From an uncultured virus (IMG/VR IMGVR_UViG_3300020576_002235) (taxonomy: Duplodnaviria > Heunggongvirae > Uroviricota > Caudoviricetes), in the IMG/VR virus record IMGVR_UViG_3300020576_002235: a stretch of DNA of 64,000 bases; one strand, given 5' to 3'. The position numbers and the translations under genes were made by a program. Shown in pieces: positions 2,407 to 60,358 of this stretch; within the stretch, counting starts at the first letter, position 1; each line of letters begins with the position of its first letter. Under the pieces are notes generated by a model. The model was not told where the DNA came from, made no database searches, and worked only from the letters and a program-made list of their open reading frames with translations.

Positions 2407-4081
2407 ACATCTGAGAAGAGTGCAGGACGGGGCGAGAGATGTCTACAGCCTGTCCAATCTGTCAGCGTGGATTGAGAAATATCTACGGCTAGAAGGCAGA
2501 AAGTTTGATATGTCTGGGCGTTACAGTTTCCAGAAACGCATTGTCAATGATACATCACGAGTCGTAAACACTTCTAAGTGCGCTCAAATTGGACTAACTA
2601 CGGCTACAATCGCTTACTTTCTGGCGGCTATGGCAACGCAGAGGAAATTCAACACTATTTACGCTTTGCCTAGTCAAACCGACGCTAGCAAGATCATGAC
2701 CACGAAGATCAATCCGATCATCAACGAGTCTACGCGATTACGCCAACTGACAGACAAAAACGTAGACTCGATAGAGCTAAAACAGATAGGAAGTAATTTT
2801 CTGTTTTGCCGTGGAGCCAAAAGCGAAACAGCAGCACTGTCTATCAGCGCAGACTGCTTGGTTGCAGACGAAATAGACCGTTCAGACCCTGACGTTTTGA
2901 AGCAGTTCAGATCACGGTTACAGGCATCCGAACTAGCAATCATCAAACAATTCTCAACACCAACCATTGATGGTGTAGGCATCAGCAAGGAAGCGGAAGT
3001 ATCGCTTCGCTACAGATCATTCGCCACCTGCAACCACTGTAACCATACATGGCTACCCTCCTATCATACCGATATGAGGGTTCCCGGTTACACAGCAGAC
3101 ATAAGTGAAATAACGCGAACGAATATACAAACTCTCAACTGGAAAAGTGCGCACTGGATGTGCCCCTCGTGCGGAAAAGACCCACAGTTGCATCCGTCGC
3201 GGCTAGAGTGGATATGCGAAAATGAGACCGAAAGCTGGGAGGCAAGCACATATTTTGTTACACCAGTGACGTGCTGTGAGGTTCTAAAACCTTCATACTT
3301 GGTACGTACATCAACTGAGTTCAACACTAGAAGTGAGTGGATGAATCAGGTTCTTGGAGAAACTAGCACCGAAAACAATGATCAGATAACCGTAGAGGAT
3401 GTAAAGAATTCTTTTACTAGCTCTTTGGATTCAACAGAAATGCATTACCTCGGTGCAGATATGGGTCTGCTTTGTAGTGTTGTTATTGGGAGAAAGACTC
3501 AAGCGGGCGAACTGTTGGTTGTACATCGAGAAACAATCCCCGTATCGAATTTCGTAACTCGTAGAGCGGAGTTGCTGAAGCAGTATAGAGTAGCTGTGTC
3601 AGTGCATGATGTTCAGCCATACACACCAATGATTATGCAAATCTGCGACTACGATGTTAACGCGTATGGTTGCTCGTTCGCTGTAGGCAATAGCGTAGAA
3701 CTGTATACTATACAGGAAAAAAGCGCAGATGCAGATGAAGGAAAATTAAATTTGAGACTGGTAAAGGCTAATCGGACACGAATGCTAGACGAGATTTTGC
3801 TACTTTTCAAAGAAAAGCGGATACTTACAGCGAGAGTTAGCGACCAGGAAGACGATAAATATCTGTCACACCTGCTTTCGATGCGGCGGACGCAGGTTTT
3901 TGTGAAGGAGCAGCTTCAGTACACCTGGCAAAAGACTACAGGGGAAGATCATTCGTTATTCGCGCTTGCTTATATGAACATCGCTTGTATGCTCAGAGGG
4001 ACAGTTGAGCCGTGGGCCAGCGGGTCTTTAGGTCTGGTGAAATCGTTCAAACTGAAGCAGAAGAGTTTCATGCTAGAATAG
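2399..4081 (+). CDS. terL: Terminase large subunit (GpA-like)
   Basis: Walker A-like KCAQIGLT, Walker B LVADEIDR, FSTPT motif, CxxC pairs (CNHC, CPSC), nuclease motifs LGADMG and EDH. Confidence 0.92.
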   Translation: MLEHLRRVQDGARDVYSLSNLSAWIEKYLRLEGRKFDMSGRYSFQKRIVNDTSRVVNTSKCAQIGLTTATIAYFLAAMATQRKFNTIYALPSQTDASKIMTTKINPIINESTRLRQLTDKNVDSIELKQIGSNFLFCRGAKSETAALSISADCLVADEIDRSDPDVLKQFRSRLQASELAIIKQFSTPTIDGVGISKEAEVSLRYRSFATCNHCNHTWLPSYHTDMRVPGYTADISEITRTNIQTLNWKSAHWMCPSCGKDPQLHPSRLEWICENETESWEASTYFVTPVTCCEVLKPSYLVRTSTEFNTRSEWMNQVLGETSTENNDQITVEDVKNSFTSSLDSTEMHYLGADMGLLCSVVIGRKTQAGELLVVHRETIPVSNFVTRRAELLKQYRVAVSVHDVQPYTPMIMQICDYDVNAYGCSFAVGNSVELYTIQEKSADADEGKLNLRLVKANRTRMLDEILLLFKEKRILTARVSDQEDDKYLSHLLSMRRTQVFVKEQLQYTWQKTTGEDHSLFALAYMNIACMLRGTVEPWASGSLGLVKSFKLKQKSFMLE

Positions 4082-4188
4082 CCCGGCACTTCGACTTGAA
4101 GTGCAAACGGCACTTGAGTTGACGCTCAAGTGCCGTTCTAGTCATTCATTACTGGACAAATAACATGACATTCGATAATTGTATCACA
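4071..4188. promoter_or_regulatory. HNH leader cassette A: sense -10, two hairpins, antisense extended -10
   Basis: TGCTAGAAT 4071-4079; GCACTTC/GAAGTGC 4086-4104; AACGGCACTTGAG/CTCAAGTGCCGTT 4106-4137; TGTGATACAAT on the minus strand 4178-4188. Confidence 0.7.
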
Positions 4189-4830
4189 CCTGAAGGTGTG
4201 TCTCCGCTCGTCGAGCAAAAACCTTACACTCACCCTAACCGAAAATTGGTGCAGGGCGTCGGTACAAATGACTTCCCGGCACCTGTCGTGGTGGACGGTA
4301 AGATCATAAAGTCTTACAATGTTTGGACATGTATGCTAGCTAGGTGCTACTCAGAGCGCTGCCTAAAGAAACGTCCTACTTACGTAGGGTGTTCGGTGTC
4401 GAAAGAGTGGTTACTTTTCTCAGCCTTTGAAAAATGGTTTTCGGAGAACTACATAGAAGGATGCCAGTTAGACAAAGACCTGTTAATAGCAGGCAACTTG
4501 GTTTACAGCGCTGAAACTTGTGTATTTGTCACATCAGCCCTAAATACCTTGTTGTCGGATCATGGTGCAGCACGCGGTAATTGCCCTCTAGGCGTATCTT
4601 TCCGTAAAGACAGTAGGAAATACTCAGCACATGTCAACATAGGAACAGAACCACACTATCTCGGCCTGTTTACAACAGCTATTGACGCCCACCGTGCATA
4701 TCAACTTGCGAAAGCTAAAGTTATTGAGGATTTTCCAGTCAACAACCTGCGAGTCAGAGCCGCCCTTGACCTCAGAGTAGCTCAGCTTCGTGATGATCAT
4801 GCCAATGGTCGAATAACGCTCAAACTTTGA
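4165..4830 (+). CDS. Free-standing HNH-type endonuclease with AP2-like C-terminus (paralog A)
   Basis: W..ML.RCYS, PTY.GC.V..EW, LDKDLL..GN.VYS...CVFV..LN, PLGV, YLGLF.T...AH motifs; lies between terL and portal. Confidence 0.85.
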   Translation: MTFDNCITPEGVSPLVEQKPYTHPNRKLVQGVGTNDFPAPVVVDGKIIKSYNVWTCMLARCYSERCLKKRPTYVGCSVSKEWLLFSAFEKWFSENYIEGCQLDKDLLIAGNLVYSAETCVFVTSALNTLLSDHGAARGNCPLGVSFRKDSRKYSAHVNIGTEPHYLGLFTTAIDAHRAYQLAKAKVIEDFPVNNLRVRAALDLRVAQLRDDHANGRITLKL

Positions 4831-4887
4831 TTCTGCGCGGGCAGAATTGTCCGCGTGAACCAGAAACTTCAGCTAGAATGCTCGACT

Positions 4888-6366
4888 ATGAGCATCTTCG
4901 CAACGCTGTCCGACTTCTTTCGCTCTCCCACGCCCGAGGCAAGCACCCTTCAGCCTCCACCATTGCCCAAGGCCCCAAATGCTCCGGTCTCCAAACCTGG
5001 CTACCGTAAACAGATTGAGGCTTCTTCTGCGGCGCTGCGCGAAAGTGACCGAGGCATAACCACCTTGGATCGGCTGGTATCAGCACGAAACCTGTCTAAC
5101 ACTAAACAGATCGTCCGGCAACTGTACCACGTAAGTCCTGAGCTGTCCTCTGCTATCACTACGATGTTGAGAGTTGGCATTCCTGAGCGTTATACCGTAG
5201 TCGCAAGGAATCTCGATGGGCAGATAGACGCACCGGCGACTGGAGTAGCACATGAGTTGCTGCGCAGACTCACTTACCTCGGTTCTGTTGACGGTAGTTT
5301 CGGCCCACAGCAGACACTGCAGTCTCTTAGTGAGCAGCTTGGACTGGAGTTGCTTATTGAAGGGGCGGCTTGCTTAGAAGTTGCGTTGGATAAAGCAAGG
5401 ATTCCTGCGTCATTGAACCCCATAGCTTGCTCCCAACTGAAAATATATGAGGAAGACAATTCGTTTAGGCTCGTACAAGTTATAGGCGGACAGGAAATCG
5501 ACTTAGACCTTCCTACGGTTATCTATACCAGTTTAGATCAAGACTTGCTATCGGCATACAGCAGCTCGTACTTAGAGGCAGCTATTCCCACGGTTATGGC
5601 CGATTTTGATTTCAGTAATGATACCCGTAGAGCGCTGAAACGCGCTGTACTACCGAGGCTTACTGCCACTATTGATGGTGAGAAGGTTAAAAAGTTGACC
5701 CCGCCAGAGATACTTTCAGACGCTACAAAATTTAACGACTACAAAGCTGCTCTCATTTCAGAGGTAGAGACCGTACTTAACAACCTATCCCCTGAAGACG
5801 CGCTAGTCAGCTTTGACAGCATCACTTATTCATTCGTTGAAGGCGGCAAAGACCCCGCTGCCATTATTGAGAGAATTCAGGGCGTACTGAATGCTAAATT
5901 GGCGTCAGGCGCAAAAACTCTTCCAGTGGTATTGGGCCACGGTGGAACGTCTAATTCCTCAAGCACAGAAGCAGTACTGTATCTCAAACAAGCAAATATA
6001 ATCAGAGTCAAGCTAAACGAAATCTATTCGAGAGCCTTAACAATCGCTGTAAGAATTCTAGGAAACGACTGCTACTGCGAATTCACCTACGCTCCCATTG
6101 ACCTACGGCCAGAAGCTGAGTTAGAGGCGTTCCGCTCGATGGAACAGAGTCGCATCTTAGAGCTACTGTCACTCGGTATGGTGTCCGATGAGGAAGCGTG
6201 TGTGAAGCTCACTGGAAACTTGCCTCCGGCTGGTTATAAGTCCTTAATGGGGACTATGTTTAAAACAGCCACTGCAATAAACAAGAATCCTGCGTCCAAC
6301 ACCAGTGCTATAGACCAGTCACTAACCCCTTCTACCCCTAAAGAGCCGAAAGGTCCAGCTAAATGA
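4888..6366 (+). CDS. Portal protein
   Basis: ~492 aa, between terL and the head protease. Start taken at ATG 4888, 8 nt after TAGAAT with no clear SD (possibly leaderless). Confidence 0.8.
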   Translation: MSIFATLSDFFRSPTPEASTLQPPPLPKAPNAPVSKPGYRKQIEASSAALRESDRGITTLDRLVSARNLSNTKQIVRQLYHVSPELSSAITTMLRVGIPERYTVVARNLDGQIDAPATGVAHELLRRLTYLGSVDGSFGPQQTLQSLSEQLGLELLIEGAACLEVALDKARIPASLNPIACSQLKIYEEDNSFRLVQVIGGQEIDLDLPTVIYTSLDQDLLSAYSSSYLEAAIPTVMADFDFSNDTRRALKRAVLPRLTATIDGEKVKKLTPPEILSDATKFNDYKAALISEVETVLNNLSPEDALVSFDSITYSFVEGGKDPAAIIERIQGVLNAKLASGAKTLPVVLGHGGTSNSSSTEAVLYLKQANIIRVKLNEIYSRALTIAVRILGNDCYCEFTYAPIDLRPEAELEAFRSMEQSRILELLSLGMVSDEEACVKLTGNLPPAGYKSLMGTMFKTATAINKNPASNTSAIDQSLTPSTPKEPKGPAK

Positions 6367-9491: not shown

Positions 9492-9519
9492 GAAAAAGGC
9501 TCCCTAGGGAGCCTTTTTC
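9492..9519. terminator. Bidirectional intrinsic terminator
   Basis: GAAAAAGGCTCCC-TA-GGGAGCCTTTTTC between convergent genes. Confidence 0.9.
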
Positions 9520-11344
9520 ATTTGTAAGTTTTAACCCATAAAGTCTTACCCGCATCGTAGATTCTCTTGAATCCGTTTAATTCAGCAAGTTCTCTTTCAG
9601 TTAAACTTGGGTCATACAACAGCTTTGTGTTGTTAGCAAAGGCAGATTTCTGCAGTGAAGCTTTGTTGATAATTATACCTGATTTGGTGTAACAATAACT
9701 AGGAGCTATTTTCCTTTCTGCAGTAAATCCACAGGCTTTGTAAACACTACCTGAGAAGAAACGGTCATCTGAAAATGTGCTAAGTCTTGTAAACCCTAAC
9801 ACTTTATGAGCGTGGGCTATTAGCTTACTGCCCGCTCCTGCCACAGATCTTGAGGCACAAAATCTAACCAACTCACCTTCTGTAAGGCTGGCTCTAGTTC
9901 CTCTGCCGGTAGTTTTCATGCTAAAGCCAGCTACTGCTATCAGTTCTGTCTTATTGTACAATCCGTACCAATTACCCGCACCAGCGAAACCTTGAATATG
10001 GTACTTGTCTAGTAGCGCTCTAACCTCTATTGCTGATGGTTCCTTTACAGTTAAAGACCTCGCACCTATTCCTTTGACATTGTCCAATCCTATCCTACGT
10101 AGTATGCTTCCTTTTATTACTTCTGGCTTAGTGTCCCACTCTACATCAGAGAACATTAAAAAGTCGTAACCAGCCTCGTTGGCTTGGCGTAATTTGTCTA
10201 TATGACAACTTACACCTACTTTGTCTTCTGTGTGCCAGTAATTACCGTTCAACTCCAGCACTAGATTACCTACAATGAAGTCCGCTTTCTTAGTTGTACC
10301 CTTGTAAGGCAAGTTAGATTCTTGTATATAAGTTATCTGCAGGGAGTCTAGCCATGCGGCAACTTTTTCACTGAACCTTGAGATTTGCACTCCTTTACAT
10401 TCAGGGCACCCTAATGACACTAAATGTACTCCTTTAAGGCGCACTTGTATACCGTGCTTGCTGCACTTGAACATCACATTTCGCTCATCAACTTCTAAGT
10501 ATTCTAGTCCTGCGTTCACTAGGTTCTCATTCTGTGCCACTCGCTCTAAAAACTCCTCCATTGTTAATGCTTTTTTAATAGATGCACTTTCTATTCCGCA
10601 TTGAACACATCCGTGTCCTTTGATATGATCTGCATATTTTTGAATAGTGTCTCCGTGTTTCTCACACGTGTACAGTAGGAATGATTGATTCAGTTCTTTA
10701 TAAAAGTAGCGTTCTCCGTGTACTTCTTTGCTTCTGGTCACTATCTCGTCAAAACTGAGTCTTGATTTTCTCTTATTGCACTTTTCACATCCTGCACCTT
10801 GCAAGTGACTACTTTTTTCCTGCTTGATTTCTCCGTGTATAGGGCAGGAATAATTTATGTATTTGCCCTCTATATAATGATATATGAATTTATCTCCGTG
10901 CTTAAGCCTAGCTTTTACTTCGTAAGTTTGCAGTGTATCTCTACGCCCGTCGTTCTTTACTGCGTGCCCACAAGGAGGACAACCGTGCCCATGTAAGTGG
11001 TCATTTCTCAAATGTTTCTGCTCTCCGTGAATAGGACACTCAAAGACAACTTCGGCGTCCTCCAACCTAGAATATTTATAGTTTTCTCCGTGAATTGCTC
11101 TAGCTTTCTCTACAAACTCTTCCAAGGTGTCGCGTGCTCTCCCTTTTCGCTCATATCCACATTGAGGGCAGCCAGTGCCAGCGACAACACGTGCTTTGTC
11201 ACAAAGCACTTCTCCGTGTACCGTGCAGTTCATCCGTATCTTTCTGCTACCAGGTAATTTGGCAAGTGACTTCAAGGTGAATTTATCACCGTACAGTTCT
11301 GCACACTTCGCACGGAACTCTTCCTCGGTATAAGCTCTAGCCAT
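9518..11344 (-). CDS. Multi-domain endonuclease-like protein: ~5 Cys/His repeats (DUF723-like), Vsr/PD-(D/E)XK-like nuclease, C-terminal Mom-like GNAT-type domain
   Basis: Repeats HG..Y.Y...C..HG...H..G.GC..C; ADF....LVLELNGNYWH; ELVRFC....VAGAGSKLI....TFSD.RFFSGSVY..CGF. Confidence 0.75.
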   Translation of the reverse strand: MARAYTEEEFRAKCAELYGDKFTLKSLAKLPGSRKIRMNCTVHGEVLCDKARVVAGTGCPQCGYERKGRARDTLEEFVEKARAIHGENYKYSRLEDAEVVFECPIHGEQKHLRNDHLHGHGCPPCGHAVKNDGRRDTLQTYEVKARLKHGDKFIYHYIEGKYINYSCPIHGEIKQEKSSHLQGAGCEKCNKRKSRLSFDEIVTRSKEVHGERYFYKELNQSFLLYTCEKHGDTIQKYADHIKGHGCVQCGIESASIKKALTMEEFLERVAQNENLVNAGLEYLEVDERNVMFKCSKHGIQVRLKGVHLVSLGCPECKGVQISRFSEKVAAWLDSLQITYIQESNLPYKGTTKKADFIVGNLVLELNGNYWHTEDKVGVSCHIDKLRQANEAGYDFLMFSDVEWDTKPEVIKGSILRRIGLDNVKGIGARSLTVKEPSAIEVRALLDKYHIQGFAGAGNWYGLYNKTELIAVAGFSMKTTGRGTRASLTEGELVRFCASRSVAGAGSKLIAHAHKVLGFTRLSTFSDDRFFSGSVYKACGFTAERKIAPSYCYTKSGIIINKASLQKSAFANNTKLLYDPSLTERELAELNGFKRIYDAGKTLWVKTYK

Positions 11345-11492: not shown

Positions 11493-11580
11493 GGAATTCT
11501 CCGGTGGTAAAGCCACATTGTAGCACGAGAAACGCGTTCGAGCGCGTCAACCCAGACAATCTCACTCCTGCCCCTCCAAC

Positions 11581-47139: not shown

Positions 47140-47838
47140 TCAAGAAATCGCGGAATTCAACGAAATAGTTTCACGATTGTTTGCAAGATCGTCTCTGAGA
47201 CGATCAGCGCGGAGGGTCAGGGCGGCTTTGACTCTGGAATCAGAAGTTCTTCCAGCTACAGACATTAGAACAAGCAATCGAGCCGCTTGCCAAGCTGCAT
47301 GAGCAAGTTGTGGCGTAGCATGATTACCCAGATACCTTGAAACACCTTTGCCTCGGTGACAGAGTGCCGTGTATTTTCCGTGCTTAGTCACCGTAACGCC
47401 TAAAGGTAAGATTCCACGAGCAGCAGCATGTTCATTGAGCAGTGAATTAAGCTCTCTAGGTACAAAAACACAGTAGTCAGGCGAATATACACGGTTTCCT
47501 GGAACTAAAATATCCTTATCCAACTCCATTCCAACGTAATCTTGCTGGAGCATCCAGCGCTCAAAAGCAGAAAAAGATAACCACTCAGAGCACACAATAC
47601 AACCATTGTATGTGGGCTTACGAGCCAAGTATTTGGCTGAATAGCATCTAACTAGCATACTCATCCACGTAGAATACGTTTTTATATGACGATCACCGAC
47701 CTTAACTGAGTGTGCTGCATCATTGACACCCACACCAAGCACTAAAGTATGTCTAACGTAAGGCCCTCGTGGCCCGCGAACTTGCTTAGGCTTAGAGGGT
47801 AGCGCTAGATCAGAGTGTGCTAAAATTACATCAGCCAT
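47140..47838 (-). CDS. HNH-type endonuclease with AP2-like C-terminus (paralog C)
   Basis: Same motif series as 4165-4830. Confidence 0.85.
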   Translation of the reverse strand: MADVILAHSDLALPSKPKQVRGPRGPYVRHTLVLGVGVNDAAHSVKVGDRHIKTYSTWMSMLVRCYSAKYLARKPTYNGCIVCSEWLSFSAFERWMLQQDYVGMELDKDILVPGNRVYSPDYCVFVPRELNSLLNEHAAARGILPLGVTVTKHGKYTALCHRGKGVSRYLGNHATPQLAHAAWQAARLLVLMSVAGRTSDSRVKAALTLRADRLRDDLANNRETISLNSAIS

Positions 47839-47936
47839 GTTTGACAGTCCTTTTGTTGAGTATGGTCAGTCACCAAGCCGGAGTCGAGACCGACTTGGTG
47901 ACGCCCGCAAGGGTTGCGGACACCCACATTCTAGCA
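47816..47936. promoter_or_regulatory. HNH leader cassette C
   Basis: TGCTAGAAT (-) 47928-47936; CCGCAA/TTGCGG 47905-47919; 13-bp stem 47869-47902; antisense TGTGCTAAAAT (+) 47816-47826. Confidence 0.7.
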
Positions 47937-50579: not shown

Positions 50580-52119
50580 CGCACAATCGTCTCTTTAGCA
50601 GTTTGCCAATCCCAATCACCACTATCGATCCACTGTAAACAGCCGTGACGCTCTCCGTACCCACTCTCCGAATGACCGCTGCAGGCCATCTCATCTACAC
50701 TGCCGCCAGCACCGTCCTCACAATCGTAAAATTGAATCGCTACGTTATGCTTTCGTGACAGCGCTGCCAGTTCAATCAAAAATGCTTTCTCTTTTGGCGT
50801 GTAATAAGTCATGCAACCTCCGGCAGAAGCCTGTTCAAAGTATCTCGCCACTTTATAGCTTGATCTCTGCCAAACAGATAGATTATATCAAGTCCTAGAG
50901 ATTTAGCTACAGCCTCAGCAGATTCGTTATCTCCGTGATTACCAAGCCTCCGTATGTGCCCGGCCTCACAAATACAAAAATAGTCATCAGTATCCATAAT
51001 CAATCCCTCACACCGTTAATAACTTCACACCAAGCAGCCCAAGCAAGCTCTACGAGGTAGTCACAGCTCTTGTACGTCCCACCCCGCCACATATTAGCAA
51101 CAACCTGTAGGCTCAAGTCGTTCCTATCGGCAAACCATGCCTCAAATCGTTCACTACGCATAATTATTCCTCGTACAGCCATTGGTTGTAAGGACTATCC
51201 CGTTCCAACTCTTCCTCTGTATATCCTGCCGGAACGAGCGGTTCAAAGATACATTCAGTCTCATAGCAGAACGGCCCTTCATCAAAAGGGTTGCCACTAT
51301 TGCAGGAGTGCTTCTTGCACTTGGTGTTATAGCATTCGATAGTCATATCACACCTTATCCAGCGTAACACGCAGATTGACGTGAACCTCACTCCGATTCA
51401 CCTTGTACCACTCACGAAAACCTTCACGAGTCTTAGATGTGATAGCAAAGTCCAACGGCATGAGACCCACCTTACAGTCTAACTGTTGGTTCAACTGACT
51501 CCAACTCATCACACCGTTGCGATGATCTTCGTAAGTGACCAACGGATGCGTTGCCCACACAACATTGAATGCTGCGTAGTTGTTATGCGCAATCAGTCCG
51601 ACACCGGCAGGCTGACCGTTAAGCCCTGTCGTGACATACATAGACGGATGTAGTGGACTCCAATAGAATTTAGCTAGGTTAATAACCATACTTTTAATTT
51701 CAAACATAATTTTCCTTTATACCTTTGTCCCAAGGCTTAACATCAGGACACCCGTGAACCTCTCGGTTCCCACACAGCCAGCCAACTTTAGTTGACCGTT
51801 GCCTATACCCTTGCCCCTGCGTAAATACGCCGGGGTCAGGGCGCGGCCAATAGCAGCTAGCTGTTGGACACTGCTCACAGCATACATCAACCTTCTGCTT
51901 GACACTCTTGTCGTAAATCTTCATCAATATCTCCTGTACCAAACCTGTTAATACATTCAGGGCAGCGTGCCAACTCAGCAACACTGTTTTTGCAGAGTTC
52001 AACCTTGAACACCAGACACACATCAACAGTGCCAAATGCACGATTGCCTTTCCACATACAGATGCTGCCTGCTTCTGTCCTGCACGTCTTCTCACCGTGT
52101 TCAAATCGAATCATACTAA

Positions 52120-52389
52120 TCATACATTCACCTTAAACCCCGCAACTTTACGACCATTCTTCGCAACTGTGTCTACAGGGTACAGCACGCCTTTTTTTGC
52201 TAATTTCCACACCCTACGCCTGACAGACCTTGAATCCTCGCCCAAATCCTTGGACATCTTTGAAATGTGTCCACCGGGATGTTTCTTCAGGTAGTCAAGA
52301 ATAGGTTGTGTCAGCAGCCTGCGTGTCACAACCCTGGGGCCAGGGTTAATCTCATACGGCCACGGCCCCCGAATTTCAGTCTTTGGCAT
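52120..52389 (-). CDS. Winged-helix DNA-binding protein
   Basis: ILDYLKKHPG..ISKMSKDLG.....VRRRVWKL.KKG; start revised to MPKTE. Confidence 0.65.
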   Translation of the reverse strand: MPKTEIRGPWPYEINPGPRVVTRRLLTQPILDYLKKHPGGHISKMSKDLGEDSRSVRRRVWKLAKKGVLYPVDTVAKNGRKVAGFKVNV

Positions 52390-52843
52390 TTGAATCCTCC
52401 ATAAAAAAGCCCATCTTTTCCATCCTGGGAGTGCGGGCCTCGGCCTCCAGAATCGCCACAGAAACGTCCCGCACGCCAAGGGTGCCCACTAGGTCGTCCT
52501 GCCCACCAACGGCGTCCCTGAGCGCCTGGATTCCCTCACCGTCCAAGCCCCAATGACCGCCAGCTTTGGCCCTCGCGTCAGCCCGAAGCATGGCGTCCCG
52601 CGCCGCGATGACAACAGCTTGGCCCGCTTCGTCGCAGTGGTCACGGGTCAACATCATCATGGTGTTGACCACAGAAGCCAAGGCATCCCGATGCTCAACC
52701 GTGGCGGTGCCGCGCAGAGCTTCGTCAAGGCTGACGTGAGCGGCAAGGCTCATATCACACCGGATTGCGGCTGGCACCGGGCGGCGGCGCAGGGCCTGCG
52801 CCACGGGGTTGCGATTGAGTAGCTGCGCTTTCGTAAGCCTCAT
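52376..52843 (-). CDS. Hypothetical protein (GC-rich gene)
   Basis: 155-aa ORF, visibly GC-richer than its neighbours. Confidence 0.65.
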   Translation of the reverse strand: MRLTKAQLLNRNPVAQALRRRPVPAAIRCDMSLAAHVSLDEALRGTATVEHRDALASVVNTMMMLTRDHCDEAGQAVVIAARDAMLRADARAKAGGHWGLDGEGIQALRDAVGGQDDLVGTLGVRDVSVAILEAEARTPRMEKMGFFMEDSNAKD

Positions 52844-53111
52844 ATGTCACCCCACTCCAACACATAACCCTGCACAAAAGAGTCTGCAGCCCACTGCAGC
52901 AAATCCCTAATATGCTCTCTGCCAAAAGGAAAGTTATGATCCAGAACCCATTGGACATACTCTGCAAACGGACTATGTGCGGCAAGAAGTTTATCTGTCA
53001 CTTCCGTAGGAGTCTGCAACAACTCAAACTCAAACTCAATCGTCTGAGTCTCCTGCCTGCCGGTAGCATTCACAGTAATAGCGCTTTTTGCCCACACACA
53101 AAGGTTTCTGC

Positions 53112-53525
53112 TCATTCTAGCTCCTTCGGTATAGCCACTTCACTACCCAGCACACTTTCAACGAAAGTGCGCAGCCCTGCAACAAGCGGCGTCTGCCCAC
53201 ACTGGATATAACGCATACCGTCCTCATAAATCCAAGCAACCCAAAACTCACCTTCTGTAGCCGTACAGATTTTCTCATCTGTGAGAATGTTGCCGCCACC
53301 AGCTTCCCACACCTCACAGTAATAGGGTAGTGGGTGAAGAACGCCCGTAGCGTCAATAATAAATGGAACATTGCTGTCTAACTCAATGTGTTGATATTGA
53401 ATACCTGCATAGTTGTTACGCTTTGCGTGCTCTCGTAAGTAGTCGAAACGCATAACAGGGTTGTTCCCTTCGCAAAGAGCAACTGCCCAATTCAAAGACT
53501 GACCGGTCAGTTCTGATGTCTTCAT
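53112..53525 (-). CDS. NinX-like (DUF2591) phage protein
   Basis: MKTSELTG..LNWAVA; G.TPL.A..R..V...LG.EV.IP.EL. Confidence 0.7.
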   Translation of the reverse strand: MKTSELTGQSLNWAVALCEGNNPVMRFDYLREHAKRNNYAGIQYQHIELDSNVPFIIDATGVLHPLPYYCEVWEAGGGNILTDEKICTATEGEFWVAWIYEDGMRYIQCGQTPLVAGLRTFVESVLGSEVAIPKELE

Positions 53526-53752
53526 TTGTCTTTCTCCAAAAAAGGCTTTAACATACCGTACAACTCGTTGGCACCTAGCAAGTCATCAGGGCCACGTTTC
53601 TTGGTGTGCTGCCGCAAGTAACCACCAAACTCTGAGATCAGGGAGTCATGCAGCAAGGTCTGCTGCTCCAAACGCTCGATGCGTTTATGAAGATTAATTA
53701 CAACTTCTTGAAGCTGCTCAACTGAAAGCTCTAGTACGTCCATAGGGTCTCC

Positions 53753-54628
53753 TTACATATCAATGGGGTCACGCCAACCAATGAATCTCGGAAAGCGAAA
53801 CAAGTCTTTAACGCCTATCGGACAGTGCCTGAATTTGAGCCAGCGTCCGACGTATGCCTCTCTGTTAGCCCACACAAGAATTCTCTCACGATGGGTCAAC
53901 TTTCCGGGAGCTACGTCAAACTCAACTCCATCCAAGACCACACGAAAGCCACCGGCCATGCCGTTACCAGACTTATTTGACGCATGACTGCTACGGTGAG
54001 TGCGACCCAACTCGTCTGTAGTTGCCTCATTGTTATTGGTCTGCGCTTCATAGACATGCAGTATTTGGCAATCGTCGTCCCTAAACGGTTTGCACTTCAC
54101 ACTGTCCTGCGATGTAGCTGTACACCTGCCAAACTTGTACAGTGAGTTTGGGTTTCTTCCGATAAGCCCCTCAAACCCTTGATCCAAGACTGCTGCGTAG
54201 GTAGCGTCTAGCGTCTCTTGGTTGTACACAGGGAACTGCTGCAGCACTTGGATGTACGGAGGCAAGCAACGACTCCTCAACCACTCTAACCGAGTATGAA
54301 AAGGCAACCGCAGGTCTGTCAAGTCGTCAAACACGTAGTAAACAAACTCAGGCTCGCCCTGGATACTCATGACAGCAGAATTAGTCACCCTGTAGACATC
54401 AGCAGCATTAGGCTCTCCCACGATAATCTCACCATCCAGATCAGGCCAGAAGGCTAGCTTAGACCTGATGTGATTGTTAGGGATAGGTTTCAGGCTCCTA
54501 CTCAACGCCTGTCCTCCGATAGTTACGCACCGGATGCCGTCCAGTTTTGTGCTGAACAATTTGGGAAACGTCAACGGAGACTTGCACTTATTGACATCCT
54601 CGCTTAATTGCGGTTTGAATTGGCTCAC
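53753..54628 (-). CDS. ATP-dependent DNA ligase
   Basis: KLDGIR, LDGEI, VFD, FEGLI.R, Y..GR, K.KPF and RFP.F...RD motifs. Confidence 0.93.
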   Translation of the reverse strand: MSQFKPQLSEDVNKCKSPLTFPKLFSTKLDGIRCVTIGGQALSRSLKPIPNNHIRSKLAFWPDLDGEIIVGEPNAADVYRVTNSAVMSIQGEPEFVYYVFDDLTDLRLPFHTRLEWLRSRCLPPYIQVLQQFPVYNQETLDATYAAVLDQGFEGLIGRNPNSLYKFGRCTATSQDSVKCKPFRDDDCQILHVYEAQTNNNEATTDELGRTHRSSHASNKSGNGMAGGFRVVLDGVEFDVAPGKLTHRERILVWANREAYVGRWLKFRHCPIGVKDLFRFPRFIGWRDPIDM

Positions 54629-55289
54629 ACTTCCACCCGCATTTCTACTGAGTGAGTTCTAGCAATACCCTCTCCCACCACTTGTTTGTGGTATAAGGTT
54701 ATTTGGGAGATGCTCACCCCCCACTTGCCCTCGAATTTGCGCAACAAGTCCAGCAACGTATCTTGCAATTCCGCCTTAGCAACTTTCAACTCATTCATCT
54801 TCCAACTCCTTTAACAGTAAATAACTAGCCTCCGCGGCTTCTGCGTCTGTCATCTTGTCGGCAAGCCAAGGGGCGGGCCGACCTCTCCGATCCAGAACAG
54901 CAAACGACACGTCTGGAAACTCTTCTTCGTAGCAAGAGTCAGGGTCTGCGTTAACCTTTGCAGGCACGTAGTCACCAACGACTTCCACAAGAGCGATGAT
55001 GCAGGGGATGCCTGCAATCTTGAACTTCATAGTTAACCTCCTAACAGGTCTGTTGGTTGGCGCTTGTGCGGTTTAATGGAGTGATAACAAGTCTCCCACC
55101 CCGCTCTGTATCCAGCCATAAAGGCTTTATTCAAAGCGCCGATAAGCTCCAGCGCTTCGATCTCATTGTCAAAATGGATAGTGCAAGAGCCACCGTCAAT
55201 AGGCACCCTCACACCAAATGTGTTTTGACTCGTGTTCAACGTAGCATAATCCATAACTTCCTCTCTAAAAGGCGGCGAACCGCCATCGA

Positions 55290-56138
55290 TCAGCCCATCA
55301 AACTATAAGAGCTTCCGTAAATCTCCTGCGGCTCAGCATCCACATAGTAAGCCTTATGATCTTTCACAACCACTGACGGCTCAGTGAGAGCATCACAGAA
55401 CTCGTTGAATTGTAGAAGTTCTACAGTAGCATTCGCTTCAGTCATGAGTTTCCTCACTTCTGGAGTGTTGTGATCTGTCTGCTCCAGGTTCTTCAACTGT
55501 TGTTCCAATTTATTGTCGAACACAAACTGATGCACAGGCAACTCGAACAGGTTTGAGTCGTCCTCGGCCCTACCATCTTCATCCCACTGCTTATCCTTGC
55601 AACCGTAGCTATTACAGGTGCAGTCGCCTAGATAGTGATCGCCGCGTAGGTTGTAGGCTTTCGGTGAACCGATACTCGATCTAACGTCAGCGCCCCCATG
55701 AATCTGCACCAAAGCGCACTCTTCACCACCACACTCAAACGTAATAAACTGAATATCCTGCGACAAACAGTTCTCAAAGTTGTATGTATAAGCTACCGGC
55801 GACATATTGCCCTTTGTTGCAGCGAATTGCTCCATCAGACGTATATTGTACTCGTCTTTGCCTTCGCAAAACGCTTCGTACTCTGCCTGTAACTCAGCAT
55901 TGTACGTCAAATTGTTCTCCATATATGACGCCAAGCTTACAATGAGACACAATTCCAGTTCTGGTTGCGCTCCGGGGTTGTAAACATAAGCCTCCAACCT
56001 TTCCCCAAAGGCCAGATCGTCCCAAGTCTTGCCTTGGTTGCGCTCCCAATGCCTGCCATAAGCCCCACCGCTGTCGCACAAGGCACGCCCTGTGTTCTCT
56101 TGCAGTTGAGCAAGAATCATTTTCTTAGTAATGTCCAT
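55290..56138 (-). CDS. Acidic hypothetical early protein
   Basis: ENTG..LCDSGGAYGRHWERNQ and QIHGGADVR motifs. Confidence 0.7.
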   Translation of the reverse strand: MDITKKMILAQLQENTGRALCDSGGAYGRHWERNQGKTWDDLAFGERLEAYVYNPGAQPELELCLIVSLASYMENNLTYNAELQAEYEAFCEGKDEYNIRLMEQFAATKGNMSPVAYTYNFENCLSQDIQFITFECGGEECALVQIHGGADVRSSIGSPKAYNLRGDHYLGDCTCNSYGCKDKQWDEDGRAEDDSNLFELPVHQFVFDNKLEQQLKNLEQTDHNTPEVRKLMTEANATVELLQFNEFCDALTEPSVVVKDHKAYYVDAEPQEIYGSSYSLMG

Positions 56139-56150
56139 TTAACACCTTAT

Positions 56151-56171
56151 AAAAAAGGCCCCGAAGGGCCT
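56151..56171 (-). terminator. Intrinsic terminator
   Basis: Plus-strand AAAAAAGGCCC-CGAA-GGGCCT; near-copy of the 44647 terminator. Confidence 0.8.
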
Positions 56172-56756
56172 GGTTGAACTAAACCCCACACGCCTTTAGG
56201 AACAGTGCTTTGTTGAAAGACGAGTTCTCAGCGGCAAGTGCAGTGGCAAAAGCCTCAGCAGCTTGTACTTTGTTGGGAAGTGCAGCAATAACCTTTGCAA
56301 TCAGGATATAGTTTTTACGTGACACCTTTAACTCCTTTGGTAAACTGAAACGGTTTCTTCAACTTCAACAGTGCAGTCTGCAACTTCGCCATATCTGCAG
56401 ATTGCTCCATCTTCTGCACAGGTCGGTAGTGCAAGCCAATCAGAACCTTGCCGGTATTGTAAACAGTCTGCTTGGTCATAGCGCCCCCGTGTTATAAGTA
56501 ACTTGTTTGCCGCCCAACTCGCACAACAGCACTACTACGTCCGATGACTTCCGGGCATTCAGCAGGATAGCTGCCTTCATCTGCGCACCATAAGTCGTGT
56601 TAGCCGTGACATCAACAGTTTTGCCATTGTAAAAACACTTATAGCTGTTCATTTTCAACCTTTATAAAAGTAAACTCAGCAACATCACCCATAGTGTTGG
56701 CATCATTGCGCCAACTGAATCTTGAGGGTTGTGCTTTGTAACGTAAGCACGCTCAT

Positions 56757-57389
56757 TCACACTCTCTCCTTTCTGTCTTCCAAGTAATCAAAAATCTTGC
56801 ACAGTCGGTCTGCGTCTGAGCAGTTTGTGTACAGGGTGTTCTCCAACACACCATTACACATGGCGTACTCCATCAACACATACTCGCACATACCGTTAAA
56901 CTCACCGCTCTCACCCTCTGCCAGCGCCTGCATCAGTGTGCCTATCTGATTGCAGTCCCATTCTATAACTTCTCCCCACGCAGTATAATCTGGGCCATAG
57001 AAGCTACTGAAACCGTCTCGACTTGTGTGTCGCAATTCAGCCACATCTTTCAGCACAGCCTTATCTACTCTCTCATAAGCCTTAAGCAGACTGGCTTCGC
57101 TTATCTTACAGATGATCACGTCTGTCGTGAAGTTGTACTCTCTTGGTGACTCAAGCGCCTCAAACTTCAACTCCAGCTCAACAAACGATGCAAAAGCTTC
57201 TGCGTACTCCCTGGCATATTCAGTATGCACAGCTTTCCAGTCCATTGCGTCGTTAGCGTAATCAACAAAGGCGTCTACAGGGTTGCCGGTATCGCGCTCA
57301 CCAAACATACTGTTCAAAGCCTCGTCAAGTGCCATGCTGTGCAGACTCTCGTAAAACCCGCTGAACGGGATTGTCGTCTCATATTCCAT
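56757..57389 (-). CDS. Acidic hypothetical early protein
   Basis: PFSGFYES, SPREYNF.TD and TSRDGF.SFY motifs; AAGGAG RBS. Confidence 0.7.
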   Translation of the reverse strand: MEYETTIPFSGFYESLHSMALDEALNSMFGERDTGNPVDAFVDYANDAMDWKAVHTEYAREYAEAFASFVELELKFEALESPREYNFTTDVIICKISEASLLKAYERVDKAVLKDVAELRHTSRDGFSSFYGPDYTAWGEVIEWDCNQIGTLMQALAEGESGEFNGMCEYVLMEYAMCNGVLENTLYTNCSDADRLCKIFDYLEDRKERV

Positions 57390-57440
57390 AACTCTCTCCT
57401 TTGGATAAAGCCCGCAAAAGCAGGCAAATTGATCACAACG

Positions 57441-58382
57441 CTAACTGTCTTCCCCTTGAGCACATACAGCTTCATCAGACTCTTTAGCCAGACGCTCACA
57501 AGCTGAATCGAAGTGATCGCTCTTCAGAACCTCTTCTGCGTACTTACTGCCGACGAATCCCCAGCAAGAGTCTGTATCAACCTCTGTGCCGTCTTCCTCG
57601 TAAGTCTGCACAACACATCCAAACACCTGACCACTGTTGATATCGTTAAAGAGGCCTAAGAATTGCTGTGCATATTCACGCGCTTTTTTCCTCCGCTCGT
57701 CAGCAGGCAATTTCTGCAATTCTTCGGTCTGATCCTCGCTAGGTATCCATACACCTGCACGGTTATTCGTGTCCCACCGGCATTGCATACCACCGCCTGA
57801 CAGCGACCAGTGTTCACCGCTGTGAGAGTAGACTGACAGTAGTTGAGCGTCGGGATTGCCTGGGAAATAGGCATCTTCGTGCCACATCAACTCCAAAACA
57901 GACTTAAACGTGTCGTCATAGATAGTGTTGTCCCAGTTTGTGTGGGCCGAATCTGTGCGCAGCGCTCTTTTAACAAAGTCTGTGTCGGACTCACCAGGAA
58001 GTTGATCGAAGTCGTAATAACCTCTGAAGTTCTCCAACAAGTCTTCAAGTCCGTACTTAGCGAAAACGGCAGTGATGTATAGATCAGTGGCGAGCACCTC
58101 ATGCCTGCAGTAAATTGCCTCCAAATCAGGCTCTCCGTCTGAGTTATTACCAAGTGCCTCCAATCCTTCTGCATGATTGTCTCTGTTGCTACGATGAAAG
58201 CTGATCAGTGTTCCACAACCCTCTCCCATCAAATCCTCATGATCACAATCTTCATCGTATGTGAGATAGGCGATAACTATCTTGTCGCCTACTTTAGCCT
58301 TCAGAATTTTACCAACTGGCTCATAGTTGACCTTGTAATCCACACCTTCAAAATCTTCTGTGTACACCGTATGTTTACGCAT
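57441..58382 (-). CDS. Acidic hypothetical early protein
   Basis: YSHSG, WD....G.W and DSCWGF.G motifs; start revised to MRKH. Confidence 0.7.
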   Translation of the reverse strand: MRKHTVYTEDFEGVDYKVNYEPVGKILKAKVGDKIVIAYLTYDEDCDHEDLMGEGCGTLISFHRSNRDNHAEGLEALGNNSDGEPDLEAIYCRHEVLATDLYITAVFAKYGLEDLLENFRGYYDFDQLPGESDTDFVKRALRTDSAHTNWDNTIYDDTFKSVLELMWHEDAYFPGNPDAQLLSVYSHSGEHWSLSGGGMQCRWDTNNRAGVWIPSEDQTEELQKLPADERRKKAREYAQQFLGLFNDINSGQVFGCVVQTYEEDGTEVDTDSCWGFVGSKYAEEVLKSDHFDSACERLAKESDEAVCAQGEDS

Positions 58383-58605
58383 TCTCTCTCTCCAGGACTT
58401 GAAAGGTAAAGGTGGATACAAGACCACCGAGGTCGTTAGCGTCGTTCGTCCAACTAAACTCGTACTCGTCAGATACATCAACGCAAGGGCCTAAGCCCTC
58501 GCAGAAATCGTCAATCTCTGCTATATCCGAGTCCTCAAGCCCGGAGGCATCACCGTTGATCAAATAACAAGACCAATACGCTGGAAGTATGTAAGTATCA
58601 GCCAT
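58375..58605 (-). CDS. Small acidic hypothetical protein
   Basis: LP.YW..YLINGDASGLED; AAGGAG RBS. Confidence 0.65.
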   Translation of the reverse strand: MADTYILPAYWSCYLINGDASGLEDSDIAEIDDFCEGLGPCVDVSDEYEFSWTNDANDLGGLVSTFTFQVLERENA

Positions 58606-59287
58606 TTTCGCTCTCCTTTCCTTCTGGTGCCATCGAATGAATGTGCTCGATAGCCTTGTACGTTTCAGCAGCAATTTCTTCGATCACACCATCCAGGTAA
58701 ATTGCCTGCCCCGACGTGCAGCGTCCCCAAATGTCAAGTCCAGCCACGTTTCCAACTGTTTCACCCTTAGCCGCCAAACGATCCTTGAGCCAACTGGAAA
58801 CGATCCAGTGCTCCATCACCTCTGTATATTCGGTGTCCAGACGGTGATCGAGACAGACCTCTTCGTAATTGAACGTCATAGCCCACACTGCTTCGCGCAG
58901 CTTAGGCATGACAGACTCAATCGCCGCCTCGTTAGCGTCGTCTTCGTCGTCGTAGCCTCCTGGAGTACACCCCTCAAAGACGTAATACTCATCTTCGGTC
59001 TGTGTAACTTCAGGCACGATACCGTCTTTCACATCGTCCCAACAGCCGTTGGAGTCGGCTATGCTCTCCAGATCGACAGCATCAGCATCGCTCATGATGA
59101 ACTCCTGCACCGGGGTCTCGAAATCCACCCGCTGACAGAGTTCCAGCAATTCGTCCTGTGAGGTACAAAGTGTATCTTCAAACACTCGTGACTCCGTATA
59201 ACTGGAAATCTCCATAAGCCCGCTAATGAGGGAGGAAGCGCAAGCGTAAACATGATCGTTAACAATTTTACCAGCATAATTTTCCAT
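58598..59287 (-). CDS. Acidic hypothetical early protein
   Basis: E..EHWIVS.WL...L...GE and WGR.TSGQAI..D motifs. Confidence 0.7.
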   Translation of the reverse strand: MENYAGKIVNDHVYACASSLISGLMEISSYTESRVFEDTLCTSQDELLELCQRVDFETPVQEFIMSDADAVDLESIADSNGCWDDVKDGIVPEVTQTEDEYYVFEGCTPGGYDDEDDANEAAIESVMPKLREAVWAMTFNYEEVCLDHRLDTEYTEVMEHWIVSSWLKDRLAAKGETVGNVAGLDIWGRCTSGQAIYLDGVIEEIAAETYKAIEHIHSMAPEGKESENG

Positions 59288-59566
59288 AAAATTTCCTTTA
59301 AGAGTGAATTGATGTGCAAAGCACACCGTACAGCAGCCTGAGCTGGCTGCTGTGGGTTGTGTTTTACTGATTATGAATGGGTATAGCCATCCTTTTCAAT
59401 TCCGAGCCACATAGTGTGAAATTCCACCATTACACAACCGTCCATACAAAATGTCGGTTGGACTCTGCGTCGGAAGACTTTGTAAGGTGGTGGAAATTCT
59501 AAGCGTAGATAGATGCGCTTGAGCGCCAAGCGCTGTGCTTTGGTAATAAACATAACGGTTCCTTTC

Positions 59567-59592
59567 AAAAATAAAGCCTGCTCGCGCAGGCT
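59567..59592 (-). terminator. Terminator downstream of HNH paralog B
   Basis: Minus-strand AGCCTGC-GCGA-GCAGGCT followed by TTATTTTT. Confidence 0.75.
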
Positions 59593-59599
59593 GTTTGTG

Positions 59600-60262
59600 T
59601 TATAGTGACGTTGTGATTCTTCCGTTTGCTGCATCCTCTCTTAGTTTAGCTGCGCGCTTATCCAGCGCCACTCTGACACGAAGGTCGTCGGTAGGGAAGT
59701 AGTCTAAGAGGTCTGCTTTAGCTAACTGCCACTGCTTGTGAGCTTCTAGAGGAGTGTCATAAGTGCCCAGGCAAACTTCATATCCGTACCTTTTCACTCT
59801 AGCCTTAAATTTAGACTTATCCCTTGGGTGACTCACCCCTAGCGGGAGATCTCCTCGCCCAGCCTTACGGATATTGAGCAAATTGTTAAGCTCCTGCGGT
59901 ACAAACACACAGTTAGTAGCACTGTACACCTGATTGCCGGGAAACAACAAATCCTTGTCCAAAGCTTTTTCTTCGTGGTCTTGAGTTAACATCCACTCCT
60001 CAAAAACAGAGAACCGCAACCACTCAACAGCAACAGTGCAGCCTATGTAAGTAGGGTGTGAGGCTTGATATCTAGCTGAATAACATCGACGCAGCATGTG
60101 GCCCCAAGTGTTGTAGACCCTAGTAGGCTTTCCGTTGGCCCATACCGTGTGATTTGCATCACTGAGTCCAATGCCCCATACCAGCGGGTGATTAATACTT
60201 ACTTCTTCAGTCGAAAGTTGCGCAGCACCGCACGAAGGTGTGCTACAATCGTCGTAGGTCAT
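59600..60262 (-). CDS. HNH-type endonuclease with AP2-like C-terminus (paralog B)
   Basis: Same motif series as 4165-4830; N-terminus MTYDDCSTP versus MTFDNCITP. Confidence 0.85.
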   Translation of the reverse strand: MTYDDCSTPSCGAAQLSTEEVSINHPLVWGIGLSDANHTVWANGKPTRVYNTWGHMLRRCYSARYQASHPTYIGCTVAVEWLRFSVFEEWMLTQDHEEKALDKDLLFPGNQVYSATNCVFVPQELNNLLNIRKAGRGDLPLGVSHPRDKSKFKARVKRYGYEVCLGTYDTPLEAHKQWQLAKADLLDYFPTDDLRVRVALDKRAAKLREDAANGRITTSL

Positions 60263-60358
60263 GATTACTCCAGGAATTACTGACTCAGTGAACGCCGTTC
60301 AAATTCGACCTTGAGCGGCGTTTGCGCTTCAGAATTGAAGCGCTGGACCAATTATACC
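60239..60358. promoter_or_regulatory. HNH leader cassette B
   Basis: TATAAT (-) 60351-60356; GCGCTTC/GAAGCGC 60324-60343; ~12-13-bp stem 60291-60322; antisense TGTGCTACAAT (+) 60239-60249. Confidence 0.7.

Follow-up and report, generated by a model that had tools for sequence, protein, structure and literature searches.

Three related genes and their leaders

The stretch of DNA analysed here, called the window throughout, comprises 64,000 nucleotides (nt) of an uncultured member of the Caudoviricetes (IMG/VR record IMGVR_UViG_3300020576_002235). It carries three dispersed genes, A, B and C, whose products belong to one protein family and whose leaders are built to one plan. An earlier reading of the letters (the original prediction) had described this plan as a five-part cassette: a -10 element on the gene's own (sense) strand, two adjacent hairpins, a short stretch leading to the start codon, and an extended -10 element on the opposite (antisense) strand just inside the open reading frame (ORF). 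Direct reading of the sequence finds all five elements in A, B and C where they had been placed. The same order and spacing is shared by the three paralogs and also by four distinct orthologs of A from related phages. The parts are listed below, with the predicted transcription start sites (TSS) and the Shine-Dalgarno (SD) sequences.

4071..4079, plus strand: copy A, sense extended -10 TGCTAGAAT, overlapping the last codons and the stop (4079-4081) of terL
4086..4104, plus strand: copy A, hairpin 1, 7 base pairs (bp), loop GACTT, beginning at the predicted sense TSS 7 nt past the -10
4106..4137, plus strand: copy A, hairpin 2, 13 bp, perfect, loop TTGACG, 27 nt before the ATG at 4165
4138..4171, no strand assigned: copy A, initiation region, SD-like GGA at 4154-4156 and ATG at 4165; unstructured on the sense strand, with a predicted 5'-terminal hairpin on the antisense strand that holds the anti-SD in its loop
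4178..4188, minus strand: copy A, antisense extended -10 TGTGATACAAT, predicted TSS A4171(-)
4165..4830, plus strand: gene A, 221 amino acids, phrog_953 'HNH endonuclease', C-terminal AP2 domain (by model), residues 1-17 predicted disordered
47140..47838, minus strand: gene C, 232 amino acids, phrog_953
47816..47826, plus strand: copy C, antisense extended -10 TGTGCTAAAAT, predicted TSS A47833(+), hexamer complement at ORF nt 13-18
47833..47868, no strand assigned: copy C, initiation region, GGA at 47850-47848 and ATG at 47838-47836
47869..47902, minus strand: copy C, hairpin 2, 13 pairs including one U.G on the sense strand, 30 nt before the ATG
47903..47921, minus strand: copy C, hairpin 1, 6-bp core CCGCAA/TTGCGG, 8 bp with a G-C and a U.G pair, loop CCC
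47928..47936, minus strand: copy C, sense extended -10 TGCTAGAAT, 1 nt past the stop of the upstream gene
59600..60262, minus strand: gene B, 220 amino acids, phrog_953, followed by a canonical terminator at 59567-59592(-)
60239..60249, plus strand: copy B, antisense extended -10 TGTGCTACAAT, predicted TSS A60256(+)
60256..60290, no strand assigned: copy B, initiation region, GGAG at 60271-60268 and ATG at 60262-60260
60291..60322, minus strand: copy B, hairpin 2, 12 pairs plus one sense C.A (G.U on the antisense strand), 28 nt before the ATG
60324..60343, minus strand: copy B, hairpin 1, 8 bp, loop ATTC
60351..60356, minus strand: copy B, sense -10 TATAAT, just 3' of a canonical terminator at 60377-60402

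The complement of the antisense hexamer occupies ORF nt 14-19 in A and B and nt 13-18 in C, that is, a different codon phase. An adenine follows the antisense -10 at a distance of 7 nt in A, B and C (6-7 nt in the orthologs), placing the predicted antisense start at ORF nt +7, +7 and +6 in A, B and C, respectively; an RNA begun there would therefore cover the start codon and the SD. The predicted sense and antisense starts face each other at distances of 86, 88 and 89 nt.

Several counts set these loci apart within the window. The pattern TGTGNTANAAT has five matches where 0.52 are expected, and none of 100 shuffles reaches five; three of the matches are on the antisense strand within the opening codons of A, B and C (ORF nt 13-19), and the remaining two (1776-1786 and 47124-47134) are sense-oriented ahead of genes. 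Of the 13 sites of TGNTANAAT, those in the paralogs are the only three to run against the local gene on the ORF map. An antisense TAnAAT occurs between -10 and +60 of 6 of 78 gene starts, with a preceding TG only in the three paralogs (index 38, 39 and 38). The window has 13 long hairpins, of which the second hairpins of A, B and C make up three, and the minimum free energies (MFE) of their leaders (-90 to -11) rank first to third among 78 (C, -39.0; A, -34.5; B, -29.6; median, -18.65). The region of overlap between the two starts gives z scores of -4.1 to -8.0 over both strands, and none of 200 shuffles is equally stable.

Two copies have further features next to them. Copy B alone is flanked by two canonical U-tract terminators, at 59567-59592 (-) and 60377-60402 (-), and therefore forms a closed transcription unit. 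Six nt after the stop of copy C lies a sense-oriented TGTGCTACAAT (47124-47134), which would restart transcription of the next gene.

As the original prediction held, the three genes are relatives: their products share 45-48% amino acid identity and match the phrog_953 profile with E values of 2.8e-74, 1.6e-77 and 2.4e-70. The name HNH, which it also used, is backed by PHROG only. At E <= 0.01, Pfam yields no family for A, B or C. The invariant block across 25 family sequences, LDKD...GN..Y....C.F....N, contains no invariant His, and the family shows LDKD in place of the first His of canonical HNH enzymes. The AlphaFold model of A, made with 25 family members, has a mean predicted local distance difference test score (pLDDT) of 87.8, with residues 1-17 below 50. 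A Foldseek search with this model returned nothing at E <= 0.001; the AP2 structure 1gcc_A was matched with a probability of 1.00, an E value of 0.13 and a template modelling (TM) score of 0.65 on the target, and 2gcc_A with a VIA Z of 6.0 and a root-mean-square deviation of 2.5 (58 aligned, residues 139-214). Among the matches listed in a wide structure search, all cover residues 123-221, and the N-terminal domain is thus barely probed. Judged by the model, the C-terminal domain of A is an AP2 domain, the one part confirmed by fold; we keep "HNH" as an annotation because there is no Pfam match, no invariant His and, among the matches listed, no structural counterpart for the N-terminal domain.

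Conservation and covariation of the cassette

A scan with the portal protein identified six contigs of related phages with 85-88% identical portal proteins. All six carry an ortholog of A between terL and portal (57-59% amino acid identity to A); they represent four distinct sequences, L113, L114 (the same as L118), L115 and L116 (the same as L117), which with the window make five A-type cassettes. The proposal that each gene with its cassette is a self-contained mobile unit finds no backing here: the gene is at the same site in all six relatives, none of which offers an empty insertion site, and L119, a more distant relative, has different ORFs at this place. Relative to the window, nucleotide identity amounts to 0.53-0.64 in the leader, 0.62-0.88 in terL and 0.60-0.83 in portal. 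The sense -10 of the orthologs, TGGTAYAAT (AGGTATAAT in L115), lies 3-6 nt past the terL stop; after another 6-7 nt come a 7-bp hairpin 1, a single A and a hairpin 2 of 13-14 bp framed by AACG...CGTT, then 31 nt, the ATG and the complement of TATAAT at ORF nt 14-19. An antisense -10 or extended -10 at ORF nt 13-19 is found in all seven distinct sequences (five A-type, B and C), which upholds the opposite-strand element of the original prediction, and it is conserved at the nucleotide level. The loop motif of that prediction, T(T/C)GA in hairpin 2, is present in A, B and C and absent from the orthologs of A, whose loops read CGGAAA, CGCTAA and TTAGCG.

Compensatory changes in the stems, also claimed earlier, are borne out. 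We counted them on six sequences, the five A-type leaders and B, with the helices taken from copy A. Paired cells make up 92.5% of the total, against 21.6-39.2% when the partners are slid by 1-3 columns; 9 of the 20 pairs have changed on both sides (shuffled mean, 3.6), and the covariation score is 0.390 versus 0.168. None of 500 shuffles matches the observed paired fraction, both-side changes or covariation score, a result to be read with the provisos that the structure was derived from the same sequences and that their relatedness inflates shuffle tests; the count itself is conservative, because the 3' arm of L113 is shifted by one column in the alignment. Pairs 3, 4 and 5 of hairpin 1 of A are altered on both sides across the orthologs and B, as are 6 of the 13 pairs of hairpin 2. 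The leader of copy C is too diverged to align: its stems are unrelated and its architecture is the same. A covariance model (R1) run over 85 sources matches only A, B and L113-L118 and does not recover C.

The sequences of A, B and the orthologs can be aligned and so share ancestry, and the likeness of their leaders might reflect nothing but descent from one ancestral cassette, or chance, with no present function; the inflation of shuffle tests by relatedness speaks in the same direction. We consider this highly improbable. The proteins have diverged to 45-59% identity and 91% of third codon positions vary, whereas pairing in both stems persists by way of double changes and the spacing of the two -10 elements is fixed.

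The symmetric changes could also be those of DNA operators, inverted repeats bound by a dimeric protein with which the sites co-evolve; the AP2 domain of the paralogs, for example, might act as an autorepressor in the manner of I-TevI, which represses its own promoter via an operator (PMC2988022). In favour of such sites, hairpin 1 spans +1 to +19 of the sense promoter, and the mixed G.T and C.A exceptions suit a DNA palindrome as well as they suit RNA. However, the arms pair along all 13 positions and not at a few contact positions, and the spacing of a dimer would not tolerate loops that vary in length (3-6 nt in hairpin 1, 6-8 nt in hairpin 2) or the one-nt bulge of L114 and L115. AP2 domains in the matched structures bind as monomers. 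The antisense -10 would be left unexplained as well, and we regard this explanation as improbable.

The antisense hexamer itself is embedded in codons that change what they encode. Codons 5-7 of the six alignable genes read xAT TRT Axx, giving N/H/D, C/Y and I/T/S; third codon positions are invariant in 8.6% of codons gene-wide, and those of codons 5 and 6 are both invariant. Within the first 90 nt, no 6-nt window other than the hexamer has five or more invariant columns (gene-wide, 11 of 661 windows do); the hexamer falls in the predicted disordered stretch of the A model, residues 1-17. The hexamer of copy C lies in another reading frame and, therefore, selection would act on DNA; taken together, the sequences support the view that the antisense -10 is kept by selection on DNA and not on protein. 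We regard the motifs, their geometry, the covariation of both hairpins and the nucleotide-level conservation of the antisense -10 as established.

Apart from a 38-kb contig of the same phage, no close relative of the A, B and C proteins was found in IMG/VR, JGI metagenomes or GTDB genomes by scans with these proteins; it took the portal protein as query to bring up the orthologs of A. An IMG/VR scan with the paralog alignment gave 80 loci, only the same-phage contig being above 47% identity; scans with B alone and C alone gave five distant loci and one, the metagenome scan five and the genome scan two. Two leader DNA patterns produced only chance matches in IMG/VR besides the phage's own contig. 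The helicase and the gene at 58598-59326, used as queries for orthologs of B and C, found none, and Logan contigs of four runs, compared with 47000-61000, left the B and C loci uncovered.

The wider family does not share the cassette. Homologous genes are split in this respect: the orthologs of A keep both the antisense -10 and the paired stems, whereas an antisense TGnTAnnnT close to the start is present in four of 75 distinct phrog_953-like loci and an antisense TAnAAT in four, approximately the chance level. About half of the family lacks the N-terminal part that bears the hexamer, as 27 of 49 distinct loci start no more than 12 residues before the GVG motif. Leaders with z below -2 occur in 8 of the 75 loci, but with other designs. 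In one distant locus, L073, an antisense TGCTATACT occupies the ORF offset seen in the cassettes, by our estimate a coincidence that is not significant at one in 75. Several distant phrog_953 genes in IMG/VR (L002, L057, L074; L016, L021, L024, L073) have structured leaders of their own after TATAAT; one group has the loop CUGAUAA followed by UUAUCAG and another starts with GCRGAUAGG, neither with an Rfam match (E <= 1). Rfam gives no match at the gathering score in the window, and none at E <= 1 in 13 related loci.

Facing promoters, a possible antisense brake and its alternatives

What might such an arrangement do? We give about an even chance to the reading that the facing promoters, 86-89 nt apart, produce a cis-antisense RNA over the SD and the start codon that restrains the gene. 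Each gene would then carry a compact control module of two facing host-type promoters. The forward promoter would start the mRNA at the foot of hairpin 1, so that the message opens with two stable hairpins followed by an unstructured ribosome-binding region of 27-31 nt. From ORF nt +6/+7 the backward promoter, with its -10 hexamer embedded in codons 5-6, would start an RNA matching the start codon, the SD and both hairpins by perfect complementarity; this RNA is predicted to open with a 5'-terminal hairpin of its own, in whose loop the anti-SD is displayed. Base pairing between the sense and antisense RNAs, along with collision and occlusion at the facing promoters, would limit how much endonuclease is translated. 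We infer three steps of this scheme from the arrangement of these elements: activity of the antisense promoter, stability of its RNA and a repressive effect.

The folding of the initiation region points to the antisense strand. Between hairpin 2 and the antisense start (34-38 nt), MFE values are -5.6 to -12.0 on the antisense strand and -2.4 to -3.7 on the sense strand; the antisense strand is the stabler one in all seven sequences, with the anti-SD in or beside the loop and many G.U pairs. The z scores are -1.54, +0.15, -3.56, -1.14, -3.29, -1.39 and -1.15 for the antisense strand and, for the same seven, -0.61, +1.27, +0.33, +0.76, -1.06, +0.56 and -0.11 for the sense strand. Copy A has -5.8 (z -1.54) on the antisense strand and -3.0 (z -0.61) on the sense strand; copy B, -5.6 (z +0.15) and -2.8 (z +1.27); and copy C, -12.0 (z -3.56) and -2.5 (z +0.33), the antisense strand of C forming a 14-pair hairpin with six G.U pairs and the loop UCCUU, an anti-SD.

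A number of observations weigh against an antisense brake. The hairpin at the predicted antisense 5' end is individually significant in only two of the seven sequences (C and L114), and the seven are three lineages plus orthologs and so are not independent. Wobble pairs in hairpins 1 and 2 favour neither strand: G.U pairs possible only in the sense RNA occur in hairpin 1 of L116 and hairpin 2 of C, and sense C.A mismatches that become antisense G.U pairs occur twice in L113 and once in B. No U-run follows either hairpin on either strand (there is only GUUUGC in the A-type leaders and B, and nothing in C); therefore, a discrete small RNA is not predicted, and the antisense RNA of 65-70 nt ending at hairpin 2, as originally proposed, falls away. 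A terminator scan of the three regions found no terminator-like site, though the same scan missed the canonical terminator at 60377-60402. For an antisense RNA, 3' ends would have to arise by Rho, by collision or by trimming as far as the hairpins. The promoters all lack a -35 element, and a two-hexamer scan does not call any of them; the TG of the orthologs is off the canonical extended -10 position and abuts the hexamer (cTGTATAAT, cgaTATAAT). The cassette is not a property of the family, given the chance-level counts in the 75 distant loci and a covariance model that finds only A, B and L113-L118. Finally, the whole case rests on sequence evidence. Thus, from the interpretation first put forward, the promoter element and the covarying stems are retained, and the discrete RNA, the loop motif and the mobile unit are not.

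The antisense strand downstream of the promoter was also considered as a source of a peptide and rejected: the ORFs past the promoter have 9, 17 and 106 amino acids and are unrelated, and an AUG at +1 occurs only in A and L113.

On the one hand, several of these points would be expected if the leader acted in the sense mRNA only, its hairpins serving as 5' stabilisers or insulators against 5'-end-dependent decay and the antisense -10 causing at most interference or acting as an RNA polymerase sink, with no functional antisense RNA. Hairpin 1 begins 6-8 nt past the sense -10 in all seven sequences, that is, at the predicted TSS; the hairpins have no U-tracts and do not touch the SD; hairpin 2 of C and hairpin 1 of L116 use the sense-only U.G/G.U pairs, and no terminator delimits an antisense RNA. 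There is also a precedent in seg43(25) of Aeromonas phage 25, where a stable hairpin lies just 5' of an unsequestered ribosome-binding site (RBS) (PMC2988022). On the other hand, a leader of this kind leaves unexplained why, across amino acid changes and a second codon phase, no hexamer in the first 90 nt is conserved as well as the antisense -10, and why the initiation region folds more stably on the antisense strand in seven of seven sequences; moreover, the sense C.A mismatches of L113 and B are G.U pairs in the antisense RNA. The mRNA stabiliser remains the main rival to the antisense brake, and we rate it as possible, if rather doubtful.

Two facing -10 elements are inverted repeats by construction, and this opens another route to restraint, of the type known from T4: in a read-through RNA, the copy of the sense -10 would pair with ORF nt 13-21 and enclose the SD and the AUG, which would confine translation to transcripts begun at the gene's own promoter. 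The same logic is documented for I-TevI, I-TevII, I-TevIII, segB and Aeh1 mobE (PMC2988022), a more distant paralog in the window has a 22-bp stem that sequesters its SD, and L114 and L116 have a perfect 7-nt complement, GUAUAAU/AUUAUAC. However, complementarity stops at the promoter consensus, with unrelated flanks, and the sense and antisense hexamers do not covary: they mismatch in four of the seven sequences (TAGAAT/TACAAT in A, TATAAT/TACAAT in B, TAGAAT/TAAAAT in C and TACAAT/TATAAT in L113). The helix would have at most 9 AU-rich pairs across approximately 110 nt. Both hairpins stop 27-31 nt short of the ATG, and z scores for the sense initiation region lie between -1.06 and +1.27. A mask of this kind is quite improbable for A, B and C.

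Homing endonuclease genes are among the commonest selfish elements of phages, and, to our knowledge, how phages tolerate them is known in a few T-even cases, through promoter choice, autorepression and RBS-masking hairpins. If the antisense brake is real, a conserved module of facing promoters and hairpins adds antisense-RNA control to the known restraints on endonucleases, and it provides a compact natural self-limiting gene cassette whose specificity is set by covarying stems. More tentatively, and with less confidence than in the brake itself, we suggest that the three-hairpin cis-antisense RNA represents an unnamed RNA class that serves as the built-in brake of free-standing genes of the homing-endonuclease type, covarying in each copy so that paralogs avoid cross-talk, and that it is an instance of a wider rule across unrelated phage lineages.

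Genomic setting and comparison with known systems

The window covers most of the genome of a siphovirus-type uncultured phage with a G+C content of 49.7%. PHROG profiles place terL (2399-4081), portal, head protease, major head protein, tail proteins and the tape measure protein on the plus strand and a replication module of DNA polymerase, helicase, ligase and an SbcC-like nuclease on the minus strand. The tape measure protein (16464-28334, +) has 3956 amino acids, an unusual size that implies a very long tail. We had considered an N4-like phage, with this ORF as the virion RNA polymerase and the hairpins as DNA-hairpin promoters, and dropped the idea because PHROGs give a tape measure protein for the 3956-residue ORF and a siphovirus. 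A megablast search of 6 kb against a collection of annotated phages gave no match, and terminase identity to named phages is 28% at most. Near the start of the window are tandem repeats at 1-150 (23 bp x 6.5, 99% matches, reaching the window start), 904-964 (15 bp x 4.1, within ORF 410-1021) and 1393-1618 (35 bp x 6.5); at 339-379 an AT-rich hairpin pairs perfectly over 19 bp. These features may belong to an origin or a packaging region, or the repeats may be coding.

The promoters that this phage group evidently uses are of a type without a -35 element, in which TGn or TGTGn precedes TAnAAT. The antisense motif of the cassettes is of the same type, a point in favour of the facing-promoter reading. 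In the sense orientation, TGNTANAAT lies ahead of genes at 11517, 15610 and 47124; promoters of this type stand before a ribbon-helix-helix (RHH) gene (11517-11525), 15648 and 47059. The 11-mer TGTGCTACAAT, which is the antisense element of copy B, is sense-oriented at 47124-47134 and, in relatives, lies upstream of an RHH gene. A TAGAAT stands 6-8 nt ahead of the portal ATG (4888 in the window) in all five distinct sequences. There is no SD before portal, and a conserved hairpin with the loop GGCAnAAnTGTCC precedes the TAGAAT (region 4831-4890, and likewise in L113-L116); in L119, a distant relative, TGTGCCACAAT is found 6 nt ahead of the start codon of portal. Portal looks like a leaderless gene. 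Extended -10 promoters without a -35 element and leaderless starts are typical of Actinobacteria.

Two other endonuclease-type genes lie in the window. The first, paralog D (238 amino acids; phrog_374, E 1.5e-58; region 39362-40232, minus strand), is more distant from A, B and C. Its own -10, TGCTATACT, comes directly after the stop of thymidylate synthase and is followed by a 5' hairpin and by a long-range stem of 22-23 bp with the SD AAGGAG in its 3' arm (MFE -71.5, z -7.0, none of 200 shuffles); it has no antisense -10 and has the RBS-sequestering design of the T4 type. The second is a homing-endonuclease-like gene of 608 amino acids (phrog_559, E 9e-88), antisense within the structural module (region 9518-11766, minus strand). 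Two small RHH ORFs precede it, at 11337-11492 (RHH_1, E 1.3e-5) and 11581-11766 (weak RHH_5), and the 608-residue gene is predicted to be driven by TGCTACAAT at 11517-11525. In L126 and L127 the same place is occupied by TGTGCTACAAT, an RHH gene and an HNH-AP2 gene that is canonical and differs from the gene in the window. Three solutions would stand together in one 64-kb window: the antisense promoter, the RBS mask and, for a third endonuclease, RHH proteins encoded upstream. The window is therefore a good model for comparing them.

Similar and dissimilar features are found in several known systems. As in IS10 RNA-IN/RNA-OUT, a selfish element would curb its own enzyme by means of facing promoters at its 5' end and a stable antisense stem-loop over the RBS and start codon; unlike in IS10, where the overlap is approximately 36 nt, it would be 86-89 nt here, with three hairpins rather than one and a gene of the homing-endonuclease type rather than a transposase. 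Type I toxin-antitoxin pairs such as hok/sok likewise have a cis-antisense RNA near the 5' end of a harmful gene that blocks its translation, which for A, B and C is a prediction; their toxins are small membrane peptides, whereas the proteins here are AP2-domain proteins of 220-232 amino acids. The likeness to a toxin-antitoxin pair drawn in the original prediction is not supported as a status for these cassettes.

The T-even homing endonuclease genes are, like A, B and C, free-standing, with their own promoter, a structured leader and several layers of restraint (PMC2988022); unlike in the T-even design, the hairpins of A, B and C stop 27-31 nt before the ATG and leave the SD free. The 2010 review of T4-family mobile elements describes promoter choice, autorepression, internal terminators, RNase E processing and RBS-sequestering hairpins and no antisense-RNA control, antisense transcripts being mentioned there only as a side effect of insertion (PMC2988022). 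PeSL of T4-type phages is a portable combination of a sigma-70-type promoter and a stem-loop near accessory genes, in which the stem-loop terminates upstream transcription and the sequence is conserved enough for recombination (PMC2839356, PMC4122927). Our cassettes resemble it in being promoter-and-hairpin units beside such genes and differ in that two hairpins follow the promoter, pairing is kept while the sequence is free, and a second promoter faces the first. Among the titles and abstracts listed in literature searches, with subscription journals outside their scope, none deals with antisense-RNA control of a homing endonuclease gene.

By analogy, SymR/symE offers the closest working model. 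The SymR promoter is embedded in the symE ORF, and SymR is an observed 77-nt RNA with a demonstrated effect (PMC1891008); here, too, an antisense promoter lies inside the 5' coding sequence of its putative target, at the level of motifs. In SymR/symE the target protein is harmful when over-made, and here it is an endonuclease-like phage protein of approximately 220 amino acids with an AP2 domain. The cassettes of A, B and C differ from SymR/symE in having two covarying hairpins between the promoters and no predicted 3' end, and in being known from sequence alone. Antisense control of this kind is already known from SymR and RNA-OUT, and what would be new here is its facing-promoter, two-hairpin form on endonuclease genes.

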